21,247 bases of DNA, taken from IMG/VR virus record IMGVR_UViG_3300012148_000001. One strand, 5' to 3'. Below the pieces are notes generated by a model. It did not search any database and had not been told where the DNA came from. It worked only from the letters and a program-made list of their open reading frames with translations. The stretch comes from a virus. The translations under genes and the position numbers were made by a program. Positions 1,916 through 20,601 of this stretch are shown here, piece after piece; within the stretch, counting starts at the first letter, position 1; each line of letters begins with the position of its first letter.

Positions 1916-2126
1916 CGATAATTAAGATGACGAGGGGTAAAAAACAATCCGCGAAAGTCTTTAGGCGGCGGGTCACGGGGCAGCATCGTGAGCGAAACCG
2001 AAAGGCCGCCCCCGCAAACCGTATAAAAACTCCCCCGCGGGGAATCATGGTAATTAAACGGCCGCAGGGAATGAGTAAATTCGGCTCCTGTGGGCTTCGG
2101 GCTTACGCATTTAGTAAGGAATAACG

Positions 2127-2480
2127 ATGAGTGAAAAAAAAGACCACGAGGCGCTTTTGAGCCTGAACCTGCCTTCGCAGAAGGCTATAAACGAAGAAAT
2201 CGAGGAGCGCATCAAAAAACTGAAAGCCCCGGGCAAAAAGGCTAAAGGGGCTGATATAACGGACATTAAGAAGGCGGGCGAACAGGAGATTTTTTCTAAA
2301 AACGCCTGTTGGACTATGACCAACCTCAAAACCCTTCAGGAGTTTGAAATCACGGGCGTGAACGCCGATTTTAACCTTCAGGGAATGCCGCATATCAGGG
2401 AAATGCTTGTGAGCGGAGAGATTGACGGGTTTTTGAGGGGGGACTGTTACGTGAAATTTAAACACGTGAGACATGCGTAA
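2127..2480 (+). CDS. Hypothetical protein, 117 aa, charged
   Basis: SD TAAGGAATAACG precedes the ATG. The stop TAA lies inside the repeat motif GCGTAAGC. Confidence 0.6.
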   Translation: MSEKKDHEALLSLNLPSQKAINEEIEERIKKLKAPGKKAKGADITDIKKAGEQEIFSKNACWTMTNLKTLQEFEITGVNADFNLQGMPHIREMLVSGEIDGFLRGDCYVKFKHVRHA

Positions 2481-2612
2481 GCTAGGGGCTCGCAGGGTGC
2501 GAGCGGCGAGCTCGTAACCGCAGAGCTCATTAATAGCCGCCGTTGCGAGCGGCCGTCGAACGTTAGTGAGACAGCGAGTGGAGCAATCTTTGATTGCACA
2601 GGCGGAGTGCCT
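2466..2612 (-). repeat. Mosaic repeat block
   Basis: It is largely the reverse complement of 12259-12385, with one sub-module swapped. Confidence 0.85.
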
Positions 2613-2665
2613 AAAAAGAATAAGTAATGGTTGTAAATTATCGCTTTTTAAGGAGAAATTTATTT

Positions 2666-2746
2666 ATGAAAAAACGAACGAGCCAAAGCAGAAAGCTTGC
2701 TTTCAAATTTGCGAGTGAGAGCTTCAAAAGACCGGAGGTCTTATGA
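2666..2746 (+). CDS. Basic micro-ORF 1, 26 aa (MKKRTSQSRKLAFKFASESFKRPEVL)
   Basis: AAGGAG lies 9 nt upstream. Its stop overlaps the next ATG as ATGA. Confidence 0.45.
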   Translation: MKKRTSQSRKLAFKFASESFKRPEVL

Positions 2747-2822
2747 AAAAAAAACGAACGAGCCAAAGCAGAAAGCTTGCTTTCAAATTTGCGAGTGAGA
2801 GCTTCAAAAGACCGGAGGTCTT
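2666..2822 (+). repeat. Tandem duplication, 77 bp + 80 bp
   Basis: 2666-2742 and 2743-2822 are identical except for AAA inserted after the ATG. Confidence 0.95.
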
Positions 2823-2826
2823 ATGA
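2743..2826 (+). CDS. Basic micro-ORF 2, 27 aa; duplicate of micro-ORF 1 with one extra Lys
   Basis: GGAGG lies 6-7 nt upstream. Its stop overlaps ATG 2823 as ATGA. Confidence 0.45.
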   Translation: MKKKRTSQSRKLAFKFASESFKRPEVL

Positions 2827-3458
2827 ACTATTTTGAAATATTCAACAAAGTTATGCTGGAGCTCAACTACAGACCCGTTGTGCTCTTTGAAAACATCTTT
2901 AAAACAGAGCACCTGCGCATTTTGGAGAACATAAACCGCGTAAACGTCGATGTTTGCACGGCCTTCAACTGGTCTTTCCTCGAAAAAAAGACGCTTATAA
3001 AGCTTGAGGCCGACGCATCCGAGGCCGAGCAGGGCATAGCGGGGCAGATAACAAAGGTCTATGACGGGAAAAACAGACTTACCTTCATACCCGACTACGA
3101 AAGCTTTTATCAAGGTTCGCCCCCTCAAAACTCTTACGGTTACTTCAACGACAAGATTCTTTTCGGCAAAGCCGCACACCCGCGCGAGTTAACGGTGTAT
3201 TATAACTCTTCACAGCTTGCACTGGACGTCGGGGGCAGCGCGAAGAATTCCATGGACGAAAAAGAAGACCGCTCAATCATCCCAATGCCTTACGCAGAGC
3301 AGATTCTCGTTTACGGGACGTGCATGAAGACCAAGGCAAACCCCGCATACCCCAAGTTTGGCTTTTGGAACACGCTTTACACCATGTCGCTTGTGAATCT
3401 GCGCGCAAAGTGCAGTCCCACGAGCGAAGACGCCCCAACTATTGTGTTGAATACGTGA
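2823..3458 (+). CDS. Virion structural protein, possibly head-tail adaptor or tail-tube-A-like (211 aa)
   Basis: Good ORF that is translationally coupled to the micro-ORFs. Size and position are typical of podovirus adaptor proteins. The family was not verified. Confidence 0.45.
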   Translation: MNYFEIFNKVMLELNYRPVVLFENIFKTEHLRILENINRVNVDVCTAFNWSFLEKKTLIKLEADASEAEQGIAGQITKVYDGKNRLTFIPDYESFYQGSPPQNSYGYFNDKILFGKAAHPRELTVYYNSSQLALDVGGSAKNSMDEKEDRSIIPMPYAEQILVYGTCMKTKANPAYPKFGFWNTLYTMSLVNLRAKCSPTSEDAPTIVLNT

Positions 3459-3705
3459 GACAGACGCGAGGCTCATAGGGCAGCTGCGTTGAGCAGGTGA
3501 CCGAGAGCCGAACAATTGATGGCGAGAAGTGAGTGGAAAGTGGTGTTTACACCAACTTTCGCCACGAACGCCGAGCCAAAAGACCGCAGGTCTTATAGGC
3601 GACGTTGCGAGCGGCCGTCGAACGCTAGTGAGACAGCGAGCGCACAAAACTCTGAAAGAGTTTTGCCAGGAGCCGAATGCGTGAGACATGCGTAAGCCAG
3701 GGGCT
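3456..3705 (-). repeat. Mosaic repeat block
   Basis: Its modules are shared with 10196-10340, 5774-5848 and 2466-2580. Confidence 0.85.
3515..3597 (-). repeat. 83-nt composite element (AAGACC hairpin + GGCGAAAG bulged hairpin), copy 1
   Basis: Shared sequence ...GGCGAGAAGTGAGTGGAAAGTGGTGTTTACACCAACTTTCGCC...CCGAGCCAAAAGACCGCAGGTCTTAT. Confidence 0.9.
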
Positions 3706-3830
3706 CAAAAAGCACAGCGTTTTTACATCAAACAAGGTGAAACTTGCGAACCGTAATTTAACGGATGCGGCCAATCTTAACGCTTTGCAGGCAAAGCAAA
3801 ATCCCCGCAACGGAGCACACCCGCAGTATC

Positions 3831-3858
3831 ACAAAAGTGCCCGCAACCGCGCGGACAC
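3831..3858 (-). terminator. Intrinsic terminator for the 3887..4366 gene
   Basis: The minus strand reads GTGTCCGC-gcggtt-GCGGGCAC followed by TTTTG. Confidence 0.6.
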
Positions 3859-3886
3859 CTGTGTCAAAATAAAATTCGGTTAAGCC

Positions 3887-4366
3887 TTATCCTAAAGTCC
3901 CTTTAGGCATCACCATAAAGAGCAAAAACATGTGTCTCACAAAGATTACAACGAAAATACAGAAAATAATCAACGTCAAAAACTTTTGCATGTCAGCAAA
4001 AACAACGTTTTTCTTGTCTTTTTTGAGGTCCTGCATCACTTCAAACTCTTTTTTGTAAGGCTGAATGGGGAGCATTTCCTCAATAAAATCAATAACTTTC
4101 GAGTATTTAACCTTGATTAGGAATTGATAAGAGTCAATGTTGAGCCACCACATAAGCGTTACAGTCAACCCGACAAGCGTAACCGTAAGTATAGCACCGT
4201 TTGAAGAGAAAAACATAATTAAAAGATAAGTAATAGCAAGCAAACTAAGGCTTAAAACAGTGTAAAACCTGTTCGTGGCAAAGTTTCTGTCGATAAATTT
4301 TTCCTTGGCGTCGATGTAGCTTTTATACTGCTCCGTTATCATACAGGCTTTTTCTTTCTCGTCCAT
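3887..4366 (-). CDS. Membrane protein: N-terminal helix, 2 adjacent TM segments, a soluble segment and a C-terminal TM (SLATT-like architecture; family unverified)
   Basis: The internal start MDEKEK has AAAAAGGAGAAATTG upstream. TM spans are FYTVLSLSLLAITYLLIMFF, ILTVTLVGLTVTLMWWL and FLTLIIFCIFVVIFV. Confidence 0.65.
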   Translation of the reverse strand: MDEKEKACMITEQYKSYIDAKEKFIDRNFATNRFYTVLSLSLLAITYLLIMFFSSNGAILTVTLVGLTVTLMWWLNIDSYQFLIKVKYSKVIDFIEEMLPIQPYKKEFEVMQDLKKDKKNVVFADMQKFLTLIIFCIFVVIFVRHMFLLFMVMPKGTLG

Positions 4367-4436: not shown

Positions 4437-4612
4437 CTGCCTGCGGGAGGGCTTACGCTTTTACCGCCTGTGCAATCAGAGATTACCCCCTTCGCTCGAG
4501 CGTGGGGTCCCTACTCATTAAACACTCGTGCGGCCGCTCGTCTTCTTGCCGAACTTTGTGAGGCTTAGAAGAGAGGGTGTCGCTTGCGGCGACGCAGCCG
4601 TTCAGGACTTTT
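4437..4612 (+). repeat. Mosaic repeat block
   Basis: It contains GGCTTACGC, CCGCCTGTGCAATCAGAGATT, GGGGTCCC and GTCGCTTGCGGCGAC modules. Confidence 0.8.
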
Positions 4613-4666: not shown

Positions 4667-5239
4667 ATGTACAAATTCAGAAAGTTGAATCTCGACCCCC
4701 AAAAGCTTGACGCAGAGGCTATCGGGCACTATGTAGAGATTGTAAAATTAATAACAATATATCGTCACAATTTGTTTGACGACTTTGTAAAAACTCCCTT
4801 GAGCGAGCACGTTTTGTCGCTTGTACAAAGGACTTTCCCCTATTTTTGGGTCATACTCACGAAGGCGGACGGACGTTTTTGCGGATTCATCTATTTGTAT
4901 GATTTTGTGGGGGACGAAAAGTGCGCCCACAGCGCCTGCGTCACGGTTTGCCTGAAAAAATCCTTCTGGGGCAGGGCCGCGAGAGACATCGGCCGCGCCT
5001 TTACGGGTTTTTGTTTCGCGAAAATGGGGCTGAAAAAGCTTCGGGCGGAGTGTTTCGCCTCTAACACATTGACGGGCAAGGTTCTTTGCGATTTGAAGTT
5101 CAAAAAAGAGGGCGTTTTGAAGGGGGAAACGCTCGTAAACGGGCGGAGCGAAGACCTTGTGCTGTGGGGAATGCGTAAGCCGGTGCCAGGGTGGCAGCGC
5201 TGTGAAGCGGTGACACACAGCACTACGATGGCGACGTAG
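4667..5239 (+). CDS. GNAT family N-acetyltransferase (RimJ/RimL-like)
   Basis: The motif run WGRAARDIGRAFTGFCFAKMGLKKLRAECFASNTLTGKVLCDLKFKKEGVLKGETLVNG matches the GNAT core. The last ~22 codons read through repeat modules (GCGTAAGCC onward). Confidence 0.75.
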   Translation: MYKFRKLNLDPQKLDAEAIGHYVEIVKLITIYRHNLFDDFVKTPLSEHVLSLVQRTFPYFWVILTKADGRFCGFIYLYDFVGDEKCAHSACVTVCLKKSFWGRAARDIGRAFTGFCFAKMGLKKLRAECFASNTLTGKVLCDLKFKKEGVLKGETLVNGRSEDLVLWGMRKPVPGWQRCEAVTHSTTMAT

Positions 5240-5300
5240 GACTGCAGGGCAGTATGCCCGAAGCCCACAGGAGCCAAACAGCGATAGCTAGGGGTGAACC
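5173..5300 (-). repeat. Mosaic repeat block overlapping the GNAT 3' end
   Basis: It parallels 7296-7440 but lacks the 76-nt element. Confidence 0.85.
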
Positions 5301-5350: not shown

Positions 5351-5379
5351 TTGCCACACTGAAAAACCCCTTATATAAT
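5351..5379 (+). promoter_or_regulatory. Sigma70-type promoter, TTGCCA-17 nt-TATAAT
   Basis: Read directly; it lies about 80 nt upstream of the 5459 micro-ORF. Confidence 0.6.
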
Positions 5380-5533: not shown

Positions 5534-5679
5534 CGGGCATTTAATGAGAGCGGCTTCAACGCTCTCGCCCACAACAAACAAGGCGAGGTTATACCGAGCC
5601 ATAGTTTGATGGGTGCAACCAGCCTTAACGCTTTGCAAACAAAGTGAGCAATAGCGGTAAGTGCGTGTTTGCCATTTAT

Positions 5680-5707
5680 ATTATACCAAAATGCACGAAA
5701 AATACAA
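5680..5707 (-). promoter_or_regulatory. Convergent promoter, TTGTAT-16 nt-TGgTATAAT, inside a conserved 41-bp element (5671-5711)
   Basis: The reverse complement reads TTGTATttttcgtgcattttGGTATAAT. The same element recurs at 8201-8241. Confidence 0.55.
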
Positions 5708-5878
5708 GGGTGCTCCAAAATTCTGTCACCCCTGCGAGCGCCTATGAGACCTGCGGTCTTTTGGCTCACGCATAGCTCCTGTCAAAACTCTGAAAGAGTT
5801 TTGTGCGCTCCTCCGCTTCGGTCTCCTCAGCTCTGTCGCAACGTCGCCATCGTAGTGCTGCGTGTCACCGGCTGTCTT

Positions 5879-5954
5879 GGAATACGAAGTGCTCGGAAAA
5901 TTCAACATTTCCCTCGCTCAGGAGCTTTGCTTTGCATCAGCTCCCTTCGATTCC
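5879..5954 (+). repeat. 76-nt element, copy 1 (GGAATACGAAG...CTTCGATTCC)
   Basis: Near-identical to the other copies. Confidence 0.95.
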
Positions 5955-6061
5955 GCTCACAGCGCCGTCACATTCGCACCGGTTCACACCTTTACCGCCT
6001 GTCAAATCAAAGATTTGTGCATTTCTTACGGCCGCTCCACGGCCTGCAGTCATAACGGCGG

Positions 6062-6145
6062 TCATAAGACCTACAGTCTTTTGGCTCGGCGTTCGCGGCG
6101 AAAGTTGGTGTAAACACCACTTTCCACTCACTTCTCGCCATTAAT
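6062..6145 (+). repeat. 83-nt composite element, copy 2
   Basis: Same element; the loop of the first hairpin differs (ctaca versus tgc). Confidence 0.9.
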
Positions 6146-6170
6146 GAGCTCTGCAGCCACCGGCTTTCTT

Positions 6171-6246
6171 GGAATACGAAGCGCTCGGAAAATTCAACAT
6201 TTCCCTTGCTCAGGAGCTTTGCTTTGCATCAGCTCCCTTCGATTCC
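6171..6246 (+). repeat. 76-nt element, copy 2
   Basis: Near-identical to the other copies. Confidence 0.95.
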
Positions 6247-6449
6247 GCTCACCGCCGCTGTCTTTCGAGCCCCTAGCTATCGCTATTGGCTCCTGTCAAA
6301 ACTCTGAAAGAGTTTTGTGCGCTCCTCCGCTTCGGTCTCCTCAGCTCTGTCGCAACGTCGCCTATCAATACGTACGGTCTTGCGGTCTTGCCAAGCAAGC
6401 CCTGCAGACCTACTTCTGGTTCACACCTTTAGAAAGGAAAATAAACAAA

Positions 6450-7301
6450 ATGACAAACGAAAAATCTTACCCGGGCTTTTTAGCCCAAGCATGGAGCGGT
6501 AAAATCAACACAGGACTTGACGCAAGCTGCGTTATGCTCCAGTGCGTAAACCGCGATTACCAGGCGGACGCCGACAAAGGCGTCGAAGCCATAAACATCA
6601 TCGCCCCGAAAAAGGTCAAGGCGTCAAACTATGCAGGCACAATCAGCAGTTACGAGACGGTCGACACCGAAGGGCAGAAGTTAAAGCTCGACCAGAGCGT
6701 GTATTTCGGCTTTCAAGTGCCCGACATCGAGGAAGCGCAGTCAAACACAAGCATCATAGACACCCTGACCGCGCAGGCGAAAAAATCCATCGAAGAATCA
6801 ATCGACGCCTACCTTTTCGGCCACTACACAGAGGCCGCAGCCGCCAATGTCACAGGCAGCGCGGAAGACCCTGTTTTGCTTGACAGCGCAAGCGTTTACG
6901 CCAAATTTGTCGCGCTTGCCAAAAAGTTAAAACTCTCGGGCGCTATGACCTCGAGCGATAAGGGATGGGTAGTCGTTCACCCTGACGTAGAGGAGCTTTT
7001 GCTGCTTTCCGACGAATTCAGCGCGCCGTCCGCCACGGGCGACAATACCCTCTCTACAGGCTCTATAGGCAGGATTGCAGGCCTTGACGTCTTTGTCAGC
7101 AGCAATGTGGGCAAGGTTTCGGACAAATACGTAGTGCTTGCGGGTACGCAAAGGGCTATCACGTATGCGTCACAGCTTACGAAGATAGAGACAATCCGCT
7201 CGCAGTCGTCGTTTAACTCGATTGTCCGCGGCCTTTATACCTTCGGTGCGCTGACCATGAACCCCGAGGCAATGGCCGTCATGACTTGTAGAACCGCGTA
7301 A
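6450..7301 (+). CDS. Major capsid protein (HK97-fold-like, 283 aa)
   Basis: Start MTNEKSYPGF follows TTAGAAAGGAAAATAAACAAA. The protein is A/S/T/G-rich, and its C-terminal region (ITYASQLTKIETIRSQSSFNSIVRGLYTFGALTMNPEAMAVM) is typical of the Phage_capsid family. The upstream 306 nt of the track ORF is repeat mosaic. Confidence 0.7.
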   Translation: MTNEKSYPGFLAQAWSGKINTGLDASCVMLQCVNRDYQADADKGVEAINIIAPKKVKASNYAGTISSYETVDTEGQKLKLDQSVYFGFQVPDIEEAQSNTSIIDTLTAQAKKSIEESIDAYLFGHYTEAAAANVTGSAEDPVLLDSASVYAKFVALAKKLKLSGAMTSSDKGWVVVHPDVEELLLLSDEFSAPSATGDNTLSTGSIGRIAGLDVFVSSNVGKVSDKYVVLAGTQRAITYASQLTKIETIRSQSSFNSIVRGLYTFGALTMNPEAMAVMTCRTA

Positions 7302-7330
7302 GCCGGTGCTAGAGTGACGGCGCTGTGAGC

Positions 7331-7406
7331 GGAATCGAAGGGAGCTGATGCAAAGCAAAGCTCCTGAGCGAGGGAAATGTTGAATTTTCCGAGCGCTTCG
7401 TATTCC
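7331..7406 (-). repeat. 76-nt element, copy 3 (inverted)
   Basis: Its reverse complement differs from copy 2 by one base. Confidence 0.95.
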
Positions 7407-7716
7407 AAGACAGGCGGTGCCACGCAGCACTACGATAGCGACAGCTCTTCTTGTTTTCGAGGGTGAAACCCGAGAATTACAAGGGAGGGTACCCGGACGG
7501 GTGCGTAGGATGTTGAGACGGCAGTCGAAACACCCACAGGAGCTGACATCCGTTTAGGGCAGGGGTGAGCCTGAACGGCTGCGTCGTCGCAAGCGACACC
7601 CTCCCTTGTACGGCTCCTATGTCGCCTACAAGAAGAGCTGCAGCAGGCGTAAAGGGTGAACTCATTGATGGCCGCCGTTACGACCGCAGGGAGTAGGGAC
7701 CCCACGCGGCCAAGGA

Positions 7717-7890
7717 GTAGGCGACATAGGAGCCGTACTTACGATAAACAAGAAATCTGTGATTTCGTAGTTTAACGGATGCAATCTGCCGAAAGCCTTT
7801 GAGTAAAGCGAATTAGGCTTACGCGCATATTTGCCTTTGTAGCTGCTTTAGCGGCGTAGCGAAGGGGGTAATCTTTGATTTGCCAGGCGG
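7717..7890 (+). repeat. ~174-nt repeat, copy A (candidate structured RNA)
   Basis: About 95% identical to 20246-20418 by eye. Confidence 0.9.
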
Positions 7891-7942
7891 ACTGCGTAAG
7901 CCGGTGCGTCAGCGGAATCGAAGAGAAACCAAAACCTCTTGC

Positions 7943-7972
7943 TTGCACATTTCCCGCGTCATGCGCTATAAT
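7943..7972 (+). promoter_or_regulatory. Sigma70-type promoter, TTGCAC-18 nt-TATAAT
   Basis: Read directly; it lies about 130 nt upstream of the 8102 micro-ORF. Confidence 0.55.
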
Positions 7973-8170: not shown

Positions 8171-8209
8171 GGTGTTAAAAGGGTTGTTAGCGCAACCCTG
8201 CCCATTTAC

Positions 8210-8237
8210 ATTATACCAAAATGCACGAAAAATACAA
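8210..8237 (-). promoter_or_regulatory. Convergent promoter, TTGTAT-16 nt-TGgTATAAT (second copy)
   Basis: It lies within the conserved element 8201-8241, and its -10 box starts about 40 nt beyond the micro-ORF stop. Confidence 0.55.
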
Positions 8238-8351
8238 GGGGCGGAGCCGTTGAGGCTTCGGACACACTACCGTCACCCATTTCCCACACTTTGTCAAGAG
8301 CTGCCCCACATTCGGGCACAAAAACAGTTTACACAATTACGGAGAAAAACT

Positions 8352-8999
8352 ATGCAAAATATAATTACAAACGCGCCCCCTGCGGCTACAGGGCAGGGGG
8401 CGGCCGATATAAACCAGGCTCAAGGGCTCGGCGCGCTGAACCCGTCGCCGCAGGCCAACCTTTCAGAGCGCGAAAAGGGCCTTATCGAATACTGCAAAAA
8501 CATCGACAATCTCGTGGATTTCGGGATTATACAACCTCAAGAAGGACAAGCGATGAAAATAAATCTGATGAAAGAACTGTCACAACAGCCCGAGGTTTCT
8601 ACGGGTAATGAGGCACAAAGCCTTGTACAGAGCGGTTTTATGCAGTTTTTGAAAGAGCAGCCGAAGTTCTTTGAAAACAGGGACAATTTGAAGCAATACC
8701 TTGAAATTGTCGGCGTAGAGCTTGATAAAGATGATTTCGCGAAGATTGCGCAGTTGGTCGAAGACCTCGAGAATGCTGCGGTGTCGCGCTTTGCGGATAA
8801 ATCGCTTCACGGAGAGGCGCTAAAGGAGTTTAACGAGCAGGCGAAAGAGCGCCTCAAGACGCTGTCATCCAGCGTCGCGGGCGGCAGACTCGAGGCTCAA
8901 AAGTACTTTACTCCGGAGGAAATCGGCAAAATGTCGCCGCAGGAGTTCAGGCGAAACGAGCATATTATTAACGAGCAGATGAAAAAAGGCCGATTTTAA
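8352..8999 (+). CDS. Scaffolding-like protein (215 aa, helical and acidic)
   Basis: The internal start MQNIITN has GGAGAAAAACT upstream. Composition is coiled-coil-like and the gene neighbours the capsid gene. The product is inference. Confidence 0.45.
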   Translation: MQNIITNAPPAATGQGAADINQAQGLGALNPSPQANLSEREKGLIEYCKNIDNLVDFGIIQPQEGQAMKINLMKELSQQPEVSTGNEAQSLVQSGFMQFLKEQPKFFENRDNLKQYLEIVGVELDKDDFAKIAQLVEDLENAAVSRFADKSLHGEALKEFNEQAKERLKTLSSSVAGGRLEAQKYFTPEEIGKMSPQEFRRNEHIINEQMKKGRF

Positions 9000-9002: not shown

Positions 9003-9420
9003 GCGATAGCTAGGGGCTCGAAAGACAGCGGCGGTCAGCCGGTGGCTGCAGAGCTCATTAATGGCGAGAAGTGAGTGGAAAGTGGTGTTTACACCAACTT
9101 TCGCCGCGAACGCCGAGCCAAAAGACTGTAGGTCTTATGACCGCCGTTACGACCGCAGGGAGTGAACAAATCTTTGATTTGCCAGGCGGTGAATGCGTGA
9201 GCCAGAAGTAGGTCTTTAGGGCTTGCGTCGTCGCAAGCGACACCCTCCCTTGTAATTCTCGGGCATAGCCCTCGAAAACAAGAAGAGCTGAAGCAAGACC
9301 GTAAGACCGTACGTATTGATAGGCGACGTAAGAGTTTGCTCGCAAACTCCACAGGAGCTGAATGCGTGAGCCAGACGTAGGACTGCAGTGCAGTATGCCC
9401 GAAGCTCACAGGAGCCAAAG
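9003..9420 (-). repeat. Mosaic repeat block
   Basis: Its modules are shared with 6062-6430, 10150-10380 and 15494-15990. Confidence 0.9.
9057..9140 (-). repeat. 83-nt composite element, copy 3
   Basis: Same element, inverted. Confidence 0.9.
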
Positions 9421-10026: not shown

Positions 10027-10200
10027 ATGTTTCCAGACATTTTCAAAAATCACGTTATTTTCAATAAAATGATATATGCCATATATCAAAATATAAAGGG
10101 TAAGGTTGTGTTAACAACTCTTTCCGAAGTACCAAGAGGGCTTACGCATGGCTCCTGTGGGCTTCGGGCATACTGCCCTGCAGTCCTGCGTCGCCTATAA
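10027..10200 (+). CDS. Doubtful small ORF (57 aa) whose 3' half is repeat mosaic
   Basis: GAGAGG lies 4 nt upstream of the ATG. The C-terminal 20 codons are modules seen elsewhere. Confidence 0.25.
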   Translation: MFPDIFKNHVIFNKMIYAIYQNIKGKVVLTTLSEVPRGLTHGSCGLRAYCPAVLRRL

Positions 10201-11517: not shown

Positions 11518-11518
11518 T

Positions 11519-12392: not shown

Positions 12393-12407
12393 TAGAAAGG
12401 AAGATAA

Positions 12408-14027: not shown

Positions 14028-14130
14028 AAACAAGCCTCTGCCGGCTTTTGACTTTCTTTAAAGCTTGTAAAAAATGTAAAAAAGAGGAAAGCGGCTGTAT
14101 GGTGCAAAACTTAAACTAAAACCACAAACT

Positions 14131-15447
14131 ATGAACTATAAATTACTTAAATCTCAAAAAAAATTCCTGGAAATTCCACATAATTACAGCCTCGATGTTT
14201 GCATTTATCAGGGCGGTTTTGGTTCGGGAAAAACCTTTGCGGGGTCGCTTCTCGGGGTTTTGCTGTGCCTTAAATACCCCAAAATTATCGGCCTTGTGGG
14301 CGCACAGACCTATGCGCTCGTCCGAGACACAACTCTGACAAGCTATTTCGAGCATCTTTCGAACATGGGCTTCAAAGAGGGCAGGGAGTTTTCTTTCAAC
14401 AAATCCGAAAAAATACTCGAGCTAAAAAACGGCTCCAGAGTTCTGTTTCGGCACTTTGACGAGCCCAACAAACTCAAAAGTCTGAATCTGGGCTTCGCTG
14501 AAATCGAAGAAATGTCCGATGTTCCCGAAGAGACCTTCAAAATGCTTCTGGGGCGCATGAGACAGACTGTTCAGGCCGACTGGAAAGACTTTACGTACAG
14601 AATATTCGGGCATACAAACCCCGAAAACCGCAGGGGGTGGATATATAACACTTTTGTAAAAATCAAAAGGCCTAATTACAGGCTTATTATAGCGCCTTCA
14701 ACCGAGAACATCCACTTGCCGAAAGACTTTTGCAAGGATTTGAAGCGGGCATACGACGAAAAGTATTATAAAATGAACGTTTTGGGCGAATTTGAAGAAG
14801 GTGATAACGCGCTTGTAGTAAGGGATTTTACGGAAGAGAACATCCGTAAACTCAATTATAACGAGGGTCTTGATTTGCACATTACCTGTGATTTCAACGT
14901 AGACCCTATGTGCTGGCTTATCGCGCATAAAGACGACAGCAAAGTGTACTTTATAGACGAATTTGCGCTTGAAAACGCAACCACATCAAGTGCTTGCGAC
15001 GAGTTCATCCGCCGATACCCTTGCCACAAGGGACGAATCGTCATTAACGGAGACGCGAGCGGCGACAACAGGAGCTGCCAGAGCGAGTATACGAACTATG
15101 TCATCATGCGAAACAGGCTTGGCGCGCACGGTTACAGGGATGTAAAGTTCGACATCCGCACTTTCAATCCGCCGATACGCAACAGAATCGCGGCTTTTAA
15201 CGCCATGGTCAAAAACTCGGAAGGCGAAAGGCGGCTGTTCGTTGACCCGCAGTGCGAAAAACTTTTGTACAACTTTGAGAACTTGAAATATCTGGAAGGC
15301 AGCTCCAGACTTGACTTGCCGAGCTATTACCAAATCAAAAGCCTGCCCGGCACGAAATTTCTCGGCCACCCTTTTGACGCCGCAAGTTACCTTGTAGAGT
15401 ACTATTTCCCGATTGTCTGCGCGGGCAGCGGGTTTGAGGGGGTTTAG
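14131..15447 (+). CDS. terL: Terminase large subunit
   Basis: It carries Walker A (GGFGSGKTF), Walker B-like (LGFAEIEE) and nuclease acidic motifs (ITCDFNVDP, INGDASGDN, HPFDAASY). Confidence 0.9.
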   Translation: MNYKLLKSQKKFLEIPHNYSLDVCIYQGGFGSGKTFAGSLLGVLLCLKYPKIIGLVGAQTYALVRDTTLTSYFEHLSNMGFKEGREFSFNKSEKILELKNGSRVLFRHFDEPNKLKSLNLGFAEIEEMSDVPEETFKMLLGRMRQTVQADWKDFTYRIFGHTNPENRRGWIYNTFVKIKRPNYRLIIAPSTENIHLPKDFCKDLKRAYDEKYYKMNVLGEFEEGDNALVVRDFTEENIRKLNYNEGLDLHITCDFNVDPMCWLIAHKDDSKVYFIDEFALENATTSSACDEFIRRYPCHKGRIVINGDASGDNRSCQSEYTNYVIMRNRLGAHGYRDVKFDIRTFNPPIRNRIAAFNAMVKNSEGERRLFVDPQCEKLLYNFENLKYLEGSSRLDLPSYYQIKSLPGTKFLGHPFDAASYLVEYYFPIVCAGSGFEGV

Positions 15448-15449
15448 GC

Positions 15450-15990
15450 ATCCTGTTTGTCAAATCAAAGATTACCCCATTTGCAGCGAGCAACAGCTCG
15501 TCTTGTTTTCGAGGGCTATGCCCGAGAATTACAAGGGAGGGTGCCGTTTTCGGCCAAATTAAAATGGCGTAGCCATTATTCCCCGCGGGGGGCTTGTCGT
15601 ATGGCTTTGCGTCTGGCTTACGCTTTCGGCTCCTGTGGGTGTCTCAACTACCGTCTCAACATCCTACGTCGCCATCGTAGTGCTGCGTGCCGCCGACTGT
15701 CTTGGAATACGAAGCGCTCGGAAAATTCAACATTTCCCTTGCTCAGGAGCTTTGCTTTGCATCAACTCCCTTCGATTCCGCTCGCCGCCGCCGTCTTCCC
15801 CCCCCATTCCAACGTGACATTTAGTCACCTTGTAACGGGTCCCTGCACCGGCTTACGCATCCCGCCTGTCAAATCAAAGATTTGTTCACTCCCTACGGCC
15901 GCTCCACGGCCTGCGGTCGTAACGGCGGCTATCAATACGTACGGTCTTACGTGCTTGCTCATCGCAAGCCCTAAAGACCTACTTCTGGCC
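15450..15990 (+). repeat. Mosaic repeat block between terL and the 16012 gene
   Basis: Its modules are shared with 10343-10565, 5995-6060 and 9169-9330. Confidence 0.9.
15704..15779 (+). repeat. 76-nt element, copy 5
   Basis: Near-identical to the other copies (3 substitutions). Confidence 0.95.
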
Positions 15991-16011
15991 CAAGCACTTA
16001 GAAAGGAAAAT

Positions 16012-16254
16012 ATGGAAAATTTGAATCTTGTAATCGAGTATGCACCAACGGTTTTGGTGATTTTAATGTTTTTGCTGCACAACAAGTTTTTTGTGACGCC
16101 GGAGCAGTTGGAGCGCAGGCACAGGGACATTATAAAGGAGGTGGAAAACCGCTTTGCGCCTTTGATTTCGATGGATGAGCTGAAGCAGCAGTTTAGCGAA
16201 GTTAAAGAGAAAATAGACAAAATTTACGAATATTTTATGCGTGACAGGTACTGA
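16012..16254 (+). CDS. Membrane-anchored coiled-coil protein (80 aa)
   Basis: Start MENLNLV follows TTAGAAAGGAAAAT. It has an N-terminal TM segment (PTVLVILMFLL). The upstream 555 nt of the track ORF is repeat mosaic. Confidence 0.55.
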   Translation: MENLNLVIEYAPTVLVILMFLLHNKFFVTPEQLERRHRDIIKEVENRFAPLISMDELKQQFSEVKEKIDKIYEYFMRDRY

Positions 16255-16364
16255 AACCGCGGGTTTGTCAAAGGCTTAAAAGTCAATTACAGCAAAGGAA
16301 ATTGACAAAAATCTTGTAAAATAACCGCTTAATATTTCTTAACAAAAATTTTGATTTCAGGAAA

Positions 16365-16904
16365 TTACTTTAAGAAACCGAAAATGCCTGATTTCTTTGC
16401 CAGTAACGCTTTTTGCTCTTCGGTTTGTTTTTTCAGCGCGGAGATTTCTAAATCTTTTTCTATAAGTTTGGCATGGAGTTCGAAGTACTTGTCCTCCCAG
16501 TATTTTCTGCTTTCTTTCTCTTCGTTTCTAATAATTTCCAGTTGTTTATACTTGCCTGCTTCGACTGCCAGTTCCTTGAGTTCTGTAATGAGGTGTAAAG
16601 TCACAGTATCATTAGGTAAAGGGGTGGTGTGATGCGCTTCGTTGTTTAAAATTTCCGCGTTTATTATTGGAGTTTCCCGGAATGAAGCCGTGGTGTTGAT
16701 GTATGACTTGGAGGTCTTGTTGCGCTTCGATTTTAGGTTTAATTCGCGAATTTGTTCCGCTTCTTTTGGAGAAATTACAATAACTTTTCCGCCCGGTCCG
16801 TCAATTGTTTGAAGTTTTCCTTTGTCAATCCAAGCATATACCGAAGATTGGCTCATAAGAAGCATTTCCTGCGCTTCTTGAATTGTAAGTTTTAAATCTT
16901 CCAT
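16365..16904 (-). CDS. MerR/excisionase-type HTH DNA-binding protein with a C-terminal coiled coil
   Basis: The internal start is MEDLKLTIQEAQEMLLMSQSSVYAWIDKGKLQ (HTH_17-like), with AAGGATTGAA upstream. Confidence 0.65.
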   Translation of the reverse strand: MEDLKLTIQEAQEMLLMSQSSVYAWIDKGKLQTIDGPGGKVIVISPKEAEQIRELNLKSKRNKTSKSYINTTASFRETPIINAEILNNEAHHTTPLPNDTVTLHLITELKELAVEAGKYKQLEIIRNEEKESRKYWEDKYFELHAKLIEKDLEISALKKQTEEQKALLAKKSGIFGFLK

Positions 16905-16988
16905 TTCAATCCTTATTCTATTTCCAGTTAATTCCAATAAATTCTTAGAGTTTATAGTAAATTTTAGTAGTTTGCGGTGTTGCGGCTC

Positions 16989-17017
16989 TTGACAAATATT
17001 ATAGCATGGATTAGCAT
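16989..17017 (+). promoter_or_regulatory. Promoter TTGACA-17 nt-TAGCAT, reading toward the ori/rep region
   Basis: Read directly. A minus-strand TATAAT (17003-16998) overlaps it. Confidence 0.45.
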
Positions 17018-17120
17018 GCATGTAGGTTTATGTAAAAGAATGTGAAGCATGGCTGCTATATTGCGAAGGCAGGGCTTTTGCGTCCGCAGCTGATAGTGCT
17101 TTTGCTGAGGAGACAACCGG

Positions 17121-17276
17121 TGCCGACAGGCGAAAGCGCCTGAGAGTACTACAAAGACAGGATGCCGGGTATTGGAAAAATGCCGACAGGCGAAAGAGGC
17201 GTAGAGTACTGCAAAGACAGGGTATCAAAGATGGGTGCCGATTGCTGCAGGGTATCAAAGTATCGGAAAAATGACG
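17121..17276 (+). repeat. Direct repeats with a 60-bp period, plus shorter repeats
   Basis: TGCCGACAGGCGAAAG..AGAGTACT.CAAAGACAG occurs at 17121-17160 and 17181-17220 (35/40 identical). CAGGGTATCAAAG occurs twice and GGAAAAATG.CG occurs twice. A related motif lies at 18845-18880. Confidence 0.8.
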
Positions 17277-17452
17277 GGGGGTGAGAGAGTTTCAAATATG
17301 TGTCTGCGCGGCAATTGTGGAAATTGCTGTTGTACGCAGTAAAATGTTCAGTTGACGCCAAGACGGGAGCCGTTTTGAGCAGACACGCCGGAGAAGCGGG
17401 AAAGGGACTGATGCAGGGTCGCCAGGCGAAGTACAGCCGCAGCAACGGGCGG

Positions 17453-17501
17453 AAGCTCCCGAGCGAAGGAAATGTTGAATTTTCCGAGCGCTTCGTATTC
17501 C
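17453..17501 (-). repeat. 76-nt element, truncated copy (about 49 nt)
   Basis: It matches the GGAAATGTTGAATTTTCCGAGCGCTTCGTATTCC half. Confidence 0.85.
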
Positions 17502-17522
17502 AAGACGCGCGGATACACGGCA

Positions 17523-17552
17523 AAAAGGCAATAAAAATGTGCCTTTTATAAA
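17523..17552 (+). terminator. Weak hairpin/terminator candidate
   Basis: AAAAGGCA-ataaaaatg-TGCCTTTT followed by ATAAAT; the stem is AT-rich. Confidence 0.3.
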
Positions 17553-17650
17553 TAAAAAGCACAAATCAACTACTTTTTAAGTATAGCATTATTTCAAAAT
17601 AGTGCAATATGTTATTTTGTTGCGGGTTATTATTTTATTTTGCTGTGTTT
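17550..17650. other. AT-rich tract, candidate DNA-unwinding element
   Basis: Visibly AT-rich, and located between the direct repeats and the iterons. Confidence 0.4.
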
Positions 17651-17779
17651 GTAAGCGGTTTGGGAAATATGCGCTGTGACTGCGGGTGCTGCTGTGCTGC
17701 GGTGAAATTTTTCAAGAATTTGTATGAGACACGGGCGAATTCACGCTAAAGAAAAGTATATGGCTGTTGATAATGCTTA

Positions 17780-18050
17780 ACAAGGCCGTGCGGGTGCAAG
17801 TCAGGGTAAAAACCCTTAAGAGCAGAGTTTTTGGGCTATTAACAGGCGGAGGGTAAAGAAGCAATGCAGGAAGGTTTACGCCGTTTAATCGGCAGAGGGG
17901 CAGGAAAGGTTTATGGTCATAAGGTTTTACGGGCTCTATGGGCAGAAAAAACAGGATGGGAGACCTTAAAAGCAGAATCCAAGGGTGTTTACGAGCCGTT
18001 TAATTAAGGAAACAGGGTGGGGAGACCCGTAAGAGTAAAATTAGTAAAGG
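17780..18050 (+). repeat. Iteron-like imperfect direct repeats upstream of rep
   Basis: Recurring GGTTTACG(N2-3)CGTTTAAT, AGGTTTTACGGGC and ACAGG..GGGAGACC.TAA.AG units at about 50-60-bp spacing. Confidence 0.6.
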
Positions 18051-18057
18051 ATTTAAG

Positions 18058-18837
18058 ATGAATAATTACGGAATAACGGGGCAAAACAGCGAGAGTGTGC
18101 AGCAAACGCACGCAGTTACGCAGTTTGAGCTTACAAAGGCGCTTTACACATCGGATATACTGGCGAAAAGCGACCTTACTTGTTCGGCAAAGCTTTTTCT
18201 ATACGCGCTTTGCACGCATTATAACCCCAAGAATAAGACTATGTTTCCTTCTCAGGCTACGGTTGCTAAGAAGCTCGGTATAAGCGAAAAGTCGGCGGAG
18301 AGGGCTGTAAAAGAGCTTAAGGGCAAGGGTTTGATAGATTATGAAACCAGAAAAGTCAACCATTACCGCTTTAGCGAGAAGTTTTTCTCGCTGATAAATT
18401 TGAATCTCGCTGATATCCTGTCTTTCAAGGCGCAGGGGAAGGGTTCGGACAAAATGTCCGTGGGGGTCCGTCAAAATGTCTGTTGTGATGTCCGTCAAAA
18501 TGTCGGTCTAACAAATAATACTGAACAAAAAAATAAAAGGGATTTTTCTTTTTTTCAAAAAGGGCGAAGTGCTAAGGCGGCGCTGCAAGACGGGGGGAAG
18601 GCTGTGCCGTCCGTTGAGGAGACAAGGGAGCTTTTGAAGGAGCGCGAACGCATAAGGGAAGAGGGTTTTAACCCTTTGGATTATTCTTATGAGGACGCGT
18701 ACGTGTGGATAAAGTCGATGCCTGCTTTTTGGCTTAAAAAGTCAAAGATAGCAAGGAGTTTGATTGAAAAGTATAAGTTTGAGGATTTTTTGTATACGCT
18801 GGATTTTGAGATAGAGAATTTTCGGGAAGAGGCGTGA
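18058..18837 (+). CDS. Replication initiator-like winged-helix protein
   Basis: The segment LTCSAKLFLYALCTHYNPKNKTMFPSQATVAKKLGISEKSAERAVKELKGKGLI is the typical HTH_36/DnaD-like initiator N-domain. The SD is AAAGGA. Confidence 0.7.
   Translation: MNNYGITGQNSESVQQTHAVTQFELTKALYTSDILAKSDLTCSAKLFLYALCTHYNPKNKTMFPSQATVAKKLGISEKSAERAVKELKGKGLIDYETRKVNHYRFSEKFFSLINLNLADILSFKAQGKGSDKMSVGVRQNVCCDVRQNVGLTNNTEQKNKRDFSFFQKGRSAKAALQDGGKAVPSVEETRELLKERERIREEGFNPLDYSYEDAYVWIKSMPAFWLKKSKIARSLIEKYKFEDFLYTLDFEIENFREEA
18447..18504 (+). repeat. Three ..CAAAATGTC repeats inside rep
   Basis: GGACAAAATGTC is at 18447-18458 and CGTCAAAATGTC is at 18469-18480 and 18493-18504, spaced 22 and 24 bp. Confidence 0.85.
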
Positions 18838-19103
18838 GCCGAGCCGCCAACAGGCGAAAAAAAGGCGTGAAAAATGACAGGAAATTGTTGGAAAATATTG
18901 GAAAGGCCTGCTGTAAACGATTTTGTGAAATGTTTAAAAAAACGCGGCTTGAGAAAACAAGTTTCTGGAATTTTTCGGAAAAAACATGTAAATTTTTGGA
19001 ATTTTAAAAAAGGTTTTTCAAAACTGATACAAAACTATAAAAAATATGCTTTAGGAATTTGCTCCCGAAAACCCTTATATATCAAAGAAAACCTGTTTTG
19101 GGT

Positions 19104-19130
19104 TAGGTAATTTTACCTAGGTAATTTTAC
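19104..19130 (+). repeat. Tandem TAGGTAATTTTAC x2 (14-bp period)
   Basis: Read directly. Confidence 0.9.
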
Positions 19131-19644
19131 TAATATACAAATTAATAAATCCTGCTATTATCACAATAGAACGGTTAGGGCGGGTTTACGAAAACAAAAC
19201 CTTAACAGAGTGCAAACCAGTTTAAAATGTGTAAGTCAGTATGAGAGAAAAATGCTTTAAATTCGGTGTTTCACGCAAGACGGAAGCATCAAAATTCTTT
19301 AAAAAATTGACAATTTGTTTTGATATTTTTCGAACATTGTACGGCCGCAAAAGTTTATGTGGAGCCGCTGTTCAGGAATCAAAAAGACCAAACACCTTGT
19401 GTTTTGTTGATTTTAAAGAAAAGAAAATCGTTTTTCCAAGCCGCTTAAGGGAATGAGGGTTTTTCCCTACAAGAATCCTTATTCCTTTAGTGGGATAACC
19501 CGGGGGCAAATTTTGCCAAGCGCGAAACGCGCACTGTGAGGGGCTGTAGGCGAGAACAGGAGCCGAAGTACCGAGAAAAAGCACCAAGAGGGCGCATTTT
19601 AACACAAAAATTCCTTTGATTATATTATCACATCGGGTAATTGT

Positions 19645-19676
19645 TTAGGGTATTGCCTTTTGGGATAATACCCTAA
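19645..19676. repeat. Perfect 10-bp inverted repeat, TTAGGGTATT-12 nt-AATACCCTAA
   Basis: Read directly; it could be an operator or an RNA hairpin. Confidence 0.85.
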
Positions 19677-19691
19677 AGACCCAAAGTCTTG

Positions 19692-19713
19692 TGGGGCTTA
19701 GGCCCCATTTTTC
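19692..19713 (+). terminator. Intrinsic terminator
   Basis: TGGGGC-ttag-GCCCCA followed by TTTTTC. Confidence 0.6.
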
Positions 19714-19938
19714 TAAAACCGGAAAATTGTTATAACGAAATGAGCGACGTAAAATTTTTTACCGGGTGAATGGGTTACAACGGGGCAGAGCCTCACGGTT
19801 AAAGGAGAACATCCGCGCCGCAGTCGGCGTAATTCAGCAGACAAAGCAGGCTTGAAGCCTGACACTTATGACAAATGCTTGTGTAACAAGGCTAAAGGCC
19901 GATGTTCCGAGTGAAGTTAACGCTGCAAAGGAAGGGAA

Positions 19939-20166
19939 ATGAAACTTACAACCAGGGAAAATCAAGTCATATCACTGCTTGTAACAGGTTTGGACGACAA
20001 AAGCATCGCATCCCAGATGGGGGTTTCGGTCAGAACCGTACACGCGCATCTGGCAAACATTTACACAAAGTTTAAAGTTCAAAACCGCTCGAGCGCTATA
20101 CTTTTTTGGCTAAACAAAGAAGGACAGAGCTGCGGAAAGCTGCTTCAAGGCACACGCTGCCTGTAG
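19939..20166 (+). CDS. LuxR/GerE-type HTH protein (75 aa, DNA-binding domain only)
   Basis: The segment LTTRENQVISLLVTGLDDKSIASQMGVSVRTVHAHLANIYTKFKV is a canonical GerE HTH. The SD is AAGGAAGGGAA. The stop TAG lies in the repeat CCTGTAGGCG. Confidence 0.8.
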   Translation: MKLTTRENQVISLLVTGLDDKSIASQMGVSVRTVHAHLANIYTKFKVQNRSSAILFWLNKEGQSCGKLLQGTRCL

Positions 20167-20178
20167 GCGAGTTTGCGA

Positions 20179-20240
20179 GCCGTACAGAGCTGGGTCCTAG
20201 CGGATACTAAGGCGGGAGCCGCAGTACCAAGAGGGCACGC
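20179..20240 (+). repeat. 62-nt direct repeat, copy 1 (GCCGTACARAGCTGGGTCCTAGCGGATACTAAGGCG..AGCCGCAGTACCAAGAGGGCACG)
   Basis: Matches 20480-20541 with 3 differences. Confidence 0.9.
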
Positions 20241-20245
20241 TGCCT

Positions 20246-20418
20246 GTAGGCGACACAGGAGCCGTACTTACGATAAACAAGAAATCTGTGATTTCGTAGT
20301 TTAACGGATGCAATCTGCCGAAAGCCTTTGAGCAAAGTAAATCAGGCTTACGCGCATATTTGCCTTTGCAGCTGCTTTAGCAGCGTAGCGAAGGGGGTAA
20401 TCTTTGATTGCACAGGCG
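20246..20418 (+). repeat. ~174-nt repeat, copy B
   Basis: About 95% identical to 7717-7890. Confidence 0.9.
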
Positions 20419-20479
20419 CAAAAGACGTCAAGCCAGAAGTACCAAGAGGGCACGCCGCCTGTAGGCAAGGTGAAACCGC

Positions 20480-20541
20480 GCCGTACAAAGCTGGGTCCTA
20501 GCGGATACTAAGGCGTCAGCCGCAGTACCAAGAGGGCACGA
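20480..20541 (+). repeat. 62-nt direct repeat, copy 2
   Basis: Matches 20179-20240. Confidence 0.9.
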
Positions 20542-20601
20542 CGCGCATAAAACGCAGGTCGGGACGCTGTAAACGCGGGCACACTCAACCGTTGGGGAGT
20601 A

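Follow-up and report, generated by a model that had tools for sequence, protein, structure and literature searches.

The stretch of DNA analyzed here, referred to as the window, comprises 21,247 bases deposited as IMG/VR virus record IMGVR_UViG_3300012148_000001 and equals contig k141_94609 of ENA entry ERZ27241817, which stems from a short-read metagenome assembled with MEGAHIT at k141. Bases 1 to 123 recur as bases 21125 to 21247, so that the window represents a circular unit of 21,124 bp, the size already assumed in an earlier interpretation made without database searches (the sequence-only reading). The unit carries the gene set of a small tailed phage (Table 1), to which genes for a helix-turn-helix (HTH) protein and an acetyltransferase are to be added. 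Searches of PHROGs and Pfam with the open reading frames (ORFs) of the window and of its variants recognized neither an integrase nor a transposase or recombinase. The window contains no tRNA or tmRNA genes and has no match in Rfam 15 at E ≤ 1, and a megablast search with the whole unit against the INPHARED phages and the PLSDB plasmids gave no match. The called genes sum to 12,051 bp, or 57% of the circle, close to the ~12.5 kb (~59%) tallied in the sequence-only reading, and 9,073 bases (43%) are noncoding; in tailed-phage genomes, the coding share is normally above 90%. The subject of this report is the arrays of short hairpin-forming repeats that lie in the noncoding portion. They are composed of units with conserved left and right ends (L..R units), an 84-nt element termed B that is nested within some of these units, and further modules designated A, C, D, E, G, and H.

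The extent of the arrays was determined by self-BLASTN (word size 7, E ≤ 1e-3), which yielded 162 off-diagonal matches covering 3,880 bp, compared with 0 to 30 bp of repeated sequence in 20 dinucleotide-preserving shuffles. This comparison and its shuffled control had been proposed in the sequence-only reading, and the repeated blocks coincide with those it listed. Its statement that about 40% of the replicon is mosaic could not be maintained: its own blocks total ~4.0 kb, the 40% being the noncoding fraction, whereas the mosaic actually occupies 18% of the genome, or 20% (4.1 to 4.3 kb) when sequence repeated only in sister genomes or host DNA is included. The mosaic thereby makes up 46% of the 9,073 noncoding bases. 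As to individual modules, the 12 copies of GGCTTACGC and the pair GGGT-gaa-ACCC versus GGGC-tat-GCCC were found as described, and eight of the nine copies reported for the CCGCCTG..AGATT module are present, the ninth, at 15452, being only a variant. Other counts differed from those given before: the 76-nt element occurs in four full copies instead of five full copies and one truncated copy, GAGCCCCTAGCTATCGC in four copies at ≤2 mismatches, and CCCCGCGGGG in two copies.

The repeat arrays are not an assembly artifact. They were reproduced in independent assemblies from ENA, the Joint Genome Institute (JGI), and Logan that derive from other samples and were made with other pipelines; array edges are spanned at 100% identity by two Logan contigs, and one JGI contig covers window positions 12338 to 19576. 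In addition, no listed repeat longer than 141 nt is a perfect copy, so that exact identity is expected to remain below the assembler k of 141. Part of the noncoding DNA outside the repeats is unique sequence; it contains promoter-like sites as well as the stretch that precedes the replication gene. The best sigma-70-like sites (1915-1886, 5351-5379, 11796-11768, and 7944-7972) are all located in such unique noncoding DNA. Reading TGA, TAG, or TAA as a sense codon opened no long ORFs in the gaps, and when the unique noncoding DNA was considered as decayed genes of the phage family, tblastn searches with the ORFs of three relatives (contigs L012, L028, and L066) gave no matches.

The repeat units have defined ends. 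The R motif GGCTYACGC is present in 16 copies (0.3 expected) and the L motif SSCYCCTGT in 10 copies (1.0 expected), the expectations being derived from mononucleotide shuffles, and junctions in which R is followed by L after 2 to 5 nt are recurrent. Eight L..R units with lengths of 26 to 249 nt were identified in the window, four on the plus strand and four on the minus strand. They start with GCTCCTGT(A/G)G, followed by an imperfect palindrome that differs among the units (GGGCA-tac-TGCCC, AATTTCT-ttt-AGAAATT, and AGTTTGC-aa-GCAAACT), and end with a small hairpin followed by GGCTYACGC. The B element has a length of 84 nt (TGTCTTGGAATACGAAG...CTTCGATTCCGC, with core ends GGAATACGAAG and CTTCGATTCC), and its terminal inverted repeats of 10 to 11 bp close two inner hairpins. 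The window contains five full B copies, the ends of which are identical, and one fragment; one further copy with 97 to 99% identity was found in the putative host DNA described below. In the phage, B is nested in L..R units, and in the host, it lies inside a different repeat element (TTCTTG...GCGTTTACGCT) in a prepilin-like leader. Pairs of empty and filled B sites exist in both settings (slashes mark the junctions): CACCGC/TTCACAGCGC at 5173-5275 versus CACCGC/B/TCACAGCGC at 7296-7450 in the phage, and GGCCCCC/TCAACGG versus GGCCCCC/B/TCAACGG in host prepilin-like paralogues. At these sites, the ambiguous overlap amounts to 2 to 4 nt at most (CC/TCA context), and no parent insertion sequence (IS) was present in the DNA at hand. 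Module A measures 76 to 83 nt; a 73-nt A element at 6066-6138 is absent from the sister contig L005, with a junction overlap of 3 nt.

Modules A to D fold into between one and three hairpins each, and their z-scores are moderate for either strand. The thermodynamic z-scores of single modules ranged from -0.3 to -3.5 and were alike for the two strands, singling out no functional strand. In the inner hairpin of module A, four of the nine pairs were changed on both sides, with 100% of cells still paired and with the loop and the bulged base unchanged; only two alleles were seen, each of them in both phage and host. Comparable paired swaps were found in modules C and E. The pairing changes show that the hairpin is preserved and do not identify the force responsible.

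The families are common to the phage and a bacterial chromosome. A 22-mer from the core of B, the commonest module, matched only six contigs, all from one JGI metagenome series (Ga0153xxx). No exact match to this 22-mer or to a 21-mer of module A was found in the GTDB species-representative genomes, from which it follows that either the host lineage or the module families are not among these representatives; in IMG/VR, the B 22-mer gave no match. One of the B-core matches was nonphage: a prepilin-type gene adjoins it, and the surrounding chromosomal locus, which also includes SMC-ScpAB and GAPDH, was found again on contigs of 252 kb and 295 kb. The sample that yielded the window also contains a 1.14-Mb contig of the putative host (ERZ27241817 k141_54098); further host contigs include ERZ27241822 k141_100655 and ERZ27241823 k141_226278. 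Among named homologues of the prepilin-like protein, the best belong to Candidatus Gastranaerophilus and a "Cyanobacteria bacterium," and one homologue of the portal protein belongs to Candidatus Scatousia. From the shared samples, repeats, and homologues, we infer that the putative host is an uncultured gut-type bacterium related to the Melainabacteria/Gastranaerophilales.

In BLAST searches, 848 bp (0.7%) of 124 kb of this host DNA matched phage modules with 80 to 100% identity, and phage and host copies are up to 98 to 100% identical. Specifically, window positions 9241-9290 are 100% identical to positions 2910-2959 of host contig L019, module C of the array at 15450-16012 is 95% identical to L019 2873-2975, and part of module H recurs at L019 10697-10772. 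The search of host and viral contigs with module profiles, as suggested in the sequence-only reading, was performed with nhmmer; the profiles of A, B, C, H, and LR matched 104 kb of host DNA 17 times and had no match in 530 kb of sequence belonging to 51 related phages. The host figure corresponds to ~1 match per 6 kb in loci that had been chosen around prepilin-like genes, many of the matches lying inside leader codons. Likewise, the L..R pattern had nine matches in ~104 kb of host DNA, eight of them in prepilin-like leaders, compared with 0.08 in shuffles. With all nine profiles, the lone match in the related phages was a weak one to module E (L012 2503-2543, E = 4e-5), located in a 520-nt gap upstream of the small terminase gene; the L012 lineage may thus carry a few related elements. 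The module vocabulary is a property of the host-phage pair and not of the phage family, contrary to the implicit earlier idea that it is the phage's own. The G+C content is 41 to 42% for the host DNA and ~50 to 55% for the array-containing stretches of the window.

In many of the prepilin-type paralogues of the host, repeat units follow the first few codons and precede the conserved xFTLAEVLL motif. These leader inserts consist of L..R units, the B element, or part of module H and represent four types with 29 to 82 extra codons, all in frame and free of stop codons. As the extension is located upstream of the expected prepilin-peptidase cleavage site, it would be removed together with the leader. 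A target-site duplication rule of the form ATGCGT/ACGCAT was considered; it fits some of the prepilin-like leader inserts, but neither the others nor the phage units. A composite of modules C and A of ~200 nt begins at the stop codons on either side of the host SMC-ScpA-ScpB operon, and at another locus, the composite is flanked by a direct duplication of 174 nt (98% identical) that consists of AT-rich, terminator-like sequence.

Nine sister contigs, whose genes are 94 to 99% identical to those of the window, differ from it almost only in the arrays, which turn over rapidly between sisters. The portal protein is 99% identical at a DNA identity of ~95%, a difference indicative of purifying selection on the phage. 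In L002, a different module mix of ~420 nt takes the place of the block at 2474-2646, the 237-nt insert at 20240-20476 is absent and a single G copy is present, and the 80-nt tandem duplication at 2669-2827 is single-copy. Three states were observed for the site at 15450-16012, which comprises 58 nt in L009 and L010, ~100 nt in L004 and L015 (both without 15503-15969), and 564 nt in the window and L014. The hicAB genes are absent in L004, and the 8xMP gene is apparently missing in L002, repeat arrays bordering both; because the 8xMP gene is present in the distant relative L012, its absence from L002 represents a loss. The segment 9378-10092, which carries a 94-aa gene, is inverted in L004 (5516-6229) and lies exactly between two module A copies of 82 nt in opposite orientation (9057-9138 and 10197-10278). 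Two independent assemblies, L009 (4533-4654) and L010 (3701-3822), contain a 122-nt repeat unit 17 codons into the large terminase gene, at a site corresponding to about 14115-14175 of the window. Here, a 61-nt direct duplication restores the start of the gene and is accompanied by a short inverted copy of the target, which is a signature of template switching.

The expansion of the arrays is specific to the lineage of the window. Of some 30 related contigs of ≥9 kb from IMG/VR and NCBI, whose portal proteins are 29 to 61% identical to that of the window, most show an ORF cover of 0.8 to 0.95 and self-repeats of 0 to 3%, with L033 (14%) and L028 (8%) as outliers. For the window and its close variants, the greedy ORF cover is 0.62 to 0.66 and the self-repeats amount to 14 to 18% (0.62 and 18% for the window itself). 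The closest compact relative, L012 (portal 61% identical), carries most of the window's genes, separated by short gaps, on a contig of 13 kb. Two relatives, of 13,992 and 17,006 bp, have overlapping termini and were taken to be complete circles. The phage family has apparently complete circles of only 14 to 17 kb (L012, L028, L066, and others), and its gene set consists of an SU10-type portal, a terminase, a capsid protein, one large tail or virion protein, and a replication initiator. Portal homologues with ~50 to 60% identity are abundant, and some are located on contigs of up to 1.3 Mb, which are apparent prophages. The lineage of the window appears to have grown from about 14 to 17 kb to 21 kb by the addition of several kilobases of intergenic DNA.

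Table 1. Genes, repeat arrays, and related host loci. Positions refer to the window unless a host contig is named; a dot stands where no strand is assigned.
Feature	Position	Strand	Remarks
Gene for 506-aa virion or tail protein	spans window origin
8xMP membrane protein gene	3887-4366
Major capsid protein gene	6450-7301
Scaffold-like protein gene	8352-8999
Small terminase gene	10711-11109
hicAB toxin-antitoxin pair	11152-11761
SU10-type portal gene	12408-14027
Large terminase gene	14131-15447
Replication initiator gene	18058-18837
GerE-type regulator gene	19939-20166		small GerE/sigma-like protein
Amidase gene	20602-21096
Minimal L..R unit	2083-2108	+	GGCTCCTGTGGGCTTCGG joined to GCTTACGC
Mosaic block	2465-2612	.	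inverted copy of 12259-12389 (131 nt, 82% complementary)
CCGCCTG..AGATT module	2585	-	inside block 2465-2612
Perfect 80-nt tandem duplication	2669-2827	+	AAGACC-gga-GGTCTT hairpin, ribosome-binding region, ATG of 211-aa gene
Mosaic block	3451-3706	.	module A (76/83-nt element) at 3512-3600, minus strand
154-nt inverted repeat	10189-10342		other arm in block 3451-3706
Mosaic block	4437-4612	.	R motif 4450, CCGCCTG..AGATT 4464, module C fragment 4536-4606
L..R unit, 103 nt	5173-5275	-	without B element; overlaps last codons of acetyltransferase gene
Largest array	5739-6443	+	upstream of capsid gene; modules E, B, D, A
Module E in largest array	5775-5848, 6289-6362
B cores in largest array	5873-5956, 6165-6248
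Module D in largest array	5995-6061
Module A in largest array	6060-6148
Shared ribosome-binding-site module in largest array	6406-6443
L..R unit, 249 nt	7296-7544	-	B core 7329-7412 and module C fragment; begins at capsid stop codon
Mosaic block	7570-7907	.	module H 7717-7860; CCGCCTG..AGATT on minus strand at 7870
Module H, second copy	20246-20418
Array downstream of scaffold-like gene	9003-9419	-	module A 9054-9142; L..R 9195-9359, 9364-9416
Two tandem L..R units	10139-10564	+	10150-10340 and 10343-10564
Nested module A	10193-10281		in unit 10150-10340
Nested B core	10405-10488		in unit 10343-10564
R-AT-L junctions	10139/10150, 10332/10343
Mosaic block	12258-12393	+	directly upstream of portal gene; inverted copy of 2475-2605
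Array between large terminase and 80-aa genes	15450-16012	+	C 15478-15580, D 15862-15928
L..R unit in array 15450-16012	15628-15858		B core 15698-15781
Isolated B fragment, 67 nt	17453-17519	-	87-94% identical to full copies; between HTH and replication initiator genes
Array upstream of amidase gene	20157-20540	+	module G, 64-nt direct copies 20176-20239, 20477-20540
237-nt insert between G copies	20240-20476		contains second module H copy
Host prepilin insert loci	L019 10676-10930, 16889-17150, 17818-17930
Host prepilin insert loci	L025 845-950, 11366-11480
Host prepilin insert loci	L077 8527, 10001, 10979
Host prepilin insert locus	L079 10001
Host module C + A composite	L079 10783-11316
Host module C + A composite	L019 2873-3087, 8200-8407

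Several further features of the window were noted. A conserved 39-nt motif, CCATTTAYATTATACCAAAATGCACGAAAAATACAAGGG, precedes the capsid array (5672-5710), the scaffold-like gene (8202-8240), and, in a weaker form, the small terminase gene (10619-10657) and may be a phage-specific late promoter or operator. A minus-strand ORF at 17014-17562 is intact in sister genomes (164 aa in L004 and 175 aa in L009, without family match), where its N-terminal part reads through the B-element fragment; in the window, its frame is broken. A 41-nt direct repeat (17121-17161 and 17181-17221) appears to differ in copy number in L009 and L013. Within the replication initiator gene, a 12-nt tandem repeat of 3.6 copies was found (18466-18508), and a 14-nt tandem repeat is located near this gene at 19104-19130. 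The short local repeats around the replication initiator are not related to the mosaic modules and could represent iterons or elements of the origin.

Taken together, the arrays are probably accumulations of short, nonautonomous, hairpin-forming repeats that belong to families also dispersed in the chromosome of the putative host and are selfish in nature, mobilized in trans, and shuffled by recombination. Selfish hairpin elements were among the options listed in the sequence-only reading, and this option gains support from the host copies, the empty and filled B sites, and the arrays that differ between near-identical genomes. As the phage encodes no recognizable recombinase or transposase, an enzyme of the host would copy the units in trans. 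From the parallel with REP/RAYT and IS200/IS605 systems, the likeliest candidate would be a hairpin-recognizing HUH/Y1 transposase of the RAYT or IS200-IS605 kind, which acts on single-stranded DNA. Recombination and template switching between copies would then generate the mosaic order, the two orientations, the flanking duplications, the cassette deletions, and the inversions. The phage would tolerate the load because the surviving insertions are intergenic, and the existence of relatives of 14 to 17 kb suggests that capsid and headful packaging can probably accommodate extra DNA. The elements would be primarily selfish, with any effects on transcripts or on recombination with the host being secondary.

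Several observations weigh against this interpretation. The host is a putative one, assigned from shared samples, repeats, and homologues; a Y1/RAYT gene was found neither in ~124 kb of host DNA nor in the phage; and the elements are ~25 to 30 times denser in the phage (18 to 20%) than in the sampled host DNA (0.7%), a disparity with which transfer between host and phage could have run in either direction. The covariation consists of two alleles per hairpin, for which templated arm-to-arm correction of the palindrome could suffice without selection. All five full phage copies of B share one flanking context and may, for this reason, have spread within larger units. Finally, clean target-site duplications are not the rule, the direct repeats having lengths of 3, 11, 61, 64, or 174 nt or being absent, and such mixed junctions are accounted for by recombination and template switching at least as well as by transposition.

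The latter points are shared by an explanation that dispenses with transposition. According to it, nontransposable pieces of host intergenic or prepilin-leader DNA were picked up by illegitimate or short-homology recombination and were amplified and scrambled by unequal crossing-over, gene conversion, and template switching among the copies. In line with this, the flanking duplications vary from 3 to 174 nt and include the terminase insertion of L009 with its inverted target copy, host strains differ at the center of module C by a substitution and not by an insertion, the inversion took place between inverted copies, B has its single flanking context in the phage, and no transposase is present among the phage ORFs. 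Recombination as the sole cause is nevertheless unlikely in our view. The ends of B are precise and identical, carry terminal inverted repeats, and are found in two unrelated contexts with matching empty sites; the ends of the L..R units are conserved, with a GT(A/G)G head as in repeats recognized by transposases; and the same families occupy many unlinked host loci. The heterogeneous junctions suggest that recombination and template switching during replication operated in addition to any transposition.

A second alternative assigns the modules an adaptive role as regulatory or RNA elements, such as terminators, mRNA stabilizers, RNase sites created by inverted copies on both sides of a gene, arrays of binding sites, or decoy or antisense RNAs directed at host transcripts with the same modules; a role in modular gene shuffling would resemble the Promoter early Stem-Loop (PeSL) cassettes of T4-type phages. 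At six genes, arrays indeed begin at the stop codon or overlap it, and they leave unique promoter and ribosome-binding segments before the next gene, and they coincide with the gain and loss of cassettes in a PeSL-like manner. The capsid gene is bracketed by inverted copies of 145 nt, the unit at 7296-7544 being inverted relative to the copies upstream (94% complementary), and the likely promoter at 5351-5379 would place ~700 nt of modules in the leader of the capsid mRNA. The maintenance of hairpin pairing through double changes would also fit a function. However, the orientation is mixed, with four plus and four minus L..R units behind plus-strand genes, and module C, which is in sense orientation in the phage, is antisense to both flanking genes at two of three host sites. 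Module orientation is thus not tied to the direction of the flanking genes, which disfavors the RNA-processing, protein-binding, and decoy options. The strong sigma-70-like sites are positioned in unique DNA and not in the modules, few modules are terminator-like, and there is no Rfam match. Whole arrays are absent from compact relatives and from sister genomes, and the same units are found inside leader codons of host prepilin-like genes. We therefore regard a primarily adaptive role as quite improbable.

That the arrays are assembly chimeras, or that they encode proteins by way of an unusual code or small ORFs, can practically be dismissed: although the source is a short-read MEGAHIT k141 assembly, one short contig (L018) joins segments in another order, and several stop-free stretches of 120 to 270 codons run through the arrays, the arrays recur across independent samples and pipelines with array edges 100% identical in two Logan contigs and without perfect copies among the listed repeats above 141 nt, and their ORFs have no PHROG or Pfam match and compositionally odd translations, with neither codon reassignment nor the tblastn comparison with L012, L028, and L066 disclosing genes in the noncoding DNA.

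An extension of the preferred reading, in which selfish repeats shared with the host chromosome are mobilized in trans, concerns the part played by the phage. It is conceivable, if rather doubtful, that the phage is the main reservoir and vehicle of the hairpin elements for the host population and exchanges copies with the chromosome, the shared sequences serving as portable homology with host loci, including the prepilin-like gene family. If so, a tailed phage would act as a shuttle for elements resembling repetitive extragenic palindromes (REPs) or miniature inverted-repeat transposable elements (MITEs) and would have its genome architecture shaped by them.

The window represents a phage lineage that has structural genes under purifying selection and is 43% noncoding, the elements having been gained within the last ~5% of sequence divergence. 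If the preferred reading is correct, nonautonomous elements can invade and inflate phage genomes when the packaging capacity allows, they drive cassette loss, inversion, and array turnover in the phage, and phage and host have one element pool in common. In addition, a REP-like repeat system is described in Melainabacteria, including in-frame insertions in leader peptides of prepilin-like proteins, and the natural population of variants makes the mechanism of mobility directly testable. A literature search on intergenic repeats or MITEs in phage genomes and on Gastranaerophilales phages found no report of such phage arrays, and one for the sample accessions returned nothing. To our knowledge, interspersed repeats of the REP type and of the bacterial interspersed mosaic element (BIME) type are largely missing from mobile DNA.

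Among known systems, REPs are defined by a GT(A/G)G head and an imperfect palindrome of about 20 to 40 nt (Nunvar et al. 2010). The L ends described here, CCTGTGG or CCTGTAG followed by different palindromes, have this head, and further similarities to REPs and BIMEs are the clustering in mosaic arrays with other short motifs directly after stop codons, the preservation of palindromes by complementary changes, and the lack of a transposase within the element. REPs are, moreover, extragenic, high in copy number, and spread over the chromosome; for the units described here, the 17 profile matches in the host stem from loci around prepilin-like genes, many of them from within leader codons. The resemblance to BIME/REP elements or nested MITEs noted in the sequence-only reading is therefore borne out in part, by the GT(A/G)G head with its palindrome and by the nested 84-nt B element with its terminal inverted repeats; the regularly alternating REPs of BIMEs, with a small number of defined spacer motifs between them, were not observed, since same-orientation tandems occur at 9195/9364 (minus) and 10150/10343 (plus) and unrelated modules are intermixed. 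In REP/REPIN systems, a cognate rayt gene with two inverted REPs at its sides belongs to the same genome. Unlike proteobacterial REPs and REPINs, the units are found with a Melainabacteria-like host and without a RAYT gene in the ~124 kb of host DNA. They are also longer than REPs (50 to 250 nt), possess a second conserved end (GGCTYACGC), combine many hairpin sequences with the same ends, are found inside coding sequence as well, and have a phage genome as their densest known site.

Neisserial intergenic mosaic element (NIME) arrays contain many families of 50- to 150-bp units and a short recurring junction motif, the dRS3 repeats flanking the RS elements; how many units they have and in which order differs from strain to strain, and a role in recombination and in the exchange of flanking genes is ascribed to them. 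The R-(2-5 nt)-L junction similarly acts as a separator. In contrast to NIME arrays, this junction has no inverted-repeat structure, the arrays are part of the genome of a tailed phage, and the dRS3 motif ATTCCCN8GGGAAT had no match in the window at ≤1 mismatch. We know of no recombinase and no dRS3-integrating filamentous phage associated with the elements described here.

The PeSL cassettes of T4-type phages are short repeated intergenic stem-loop motifs that border nonessential genes and recombine, resulting in insertions, deletions, and replacements between phages that are ~96% identical; they constitute a single composite of a strong sigma-70 early promoter and a terminator in fixed orientation (Arbiol et al. 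2010, PMC2839356). Comparable shuffling is evident from the repeat-bounded absence of the hicAB and 8xMP cassettes, the array swaps, and the inversion between sisters. The promoter-terminator composite, on the other hand, has no counterpart, as promoter-like sites are in unique DNA and few modules are terminator-like, and the modules are diverse, occur in both orientations, are shared with the host chromosome, and make up ~20% of the genome.

Rickettsia palindromic elements (RPEs), as well as MITEs of the Correia type, are small, nonautonomous palindromic elements that can be inserted in frame into genes without destroying them. The host units in frame in prepilin-like leader codons recall RPEs, and B resembles a MITE in being small and noncoding, with terminal inverted repeats, near-identical copies, and nested insertion. 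There is no sequence similarity to either group, B shows no clear target duplication of fixed length, and we know of no parent IS for it. What is unusual about the elements is their density in a tailed phage, their association with a Melainabacteria-like host, and the in-frame copies in prepilin leaders.

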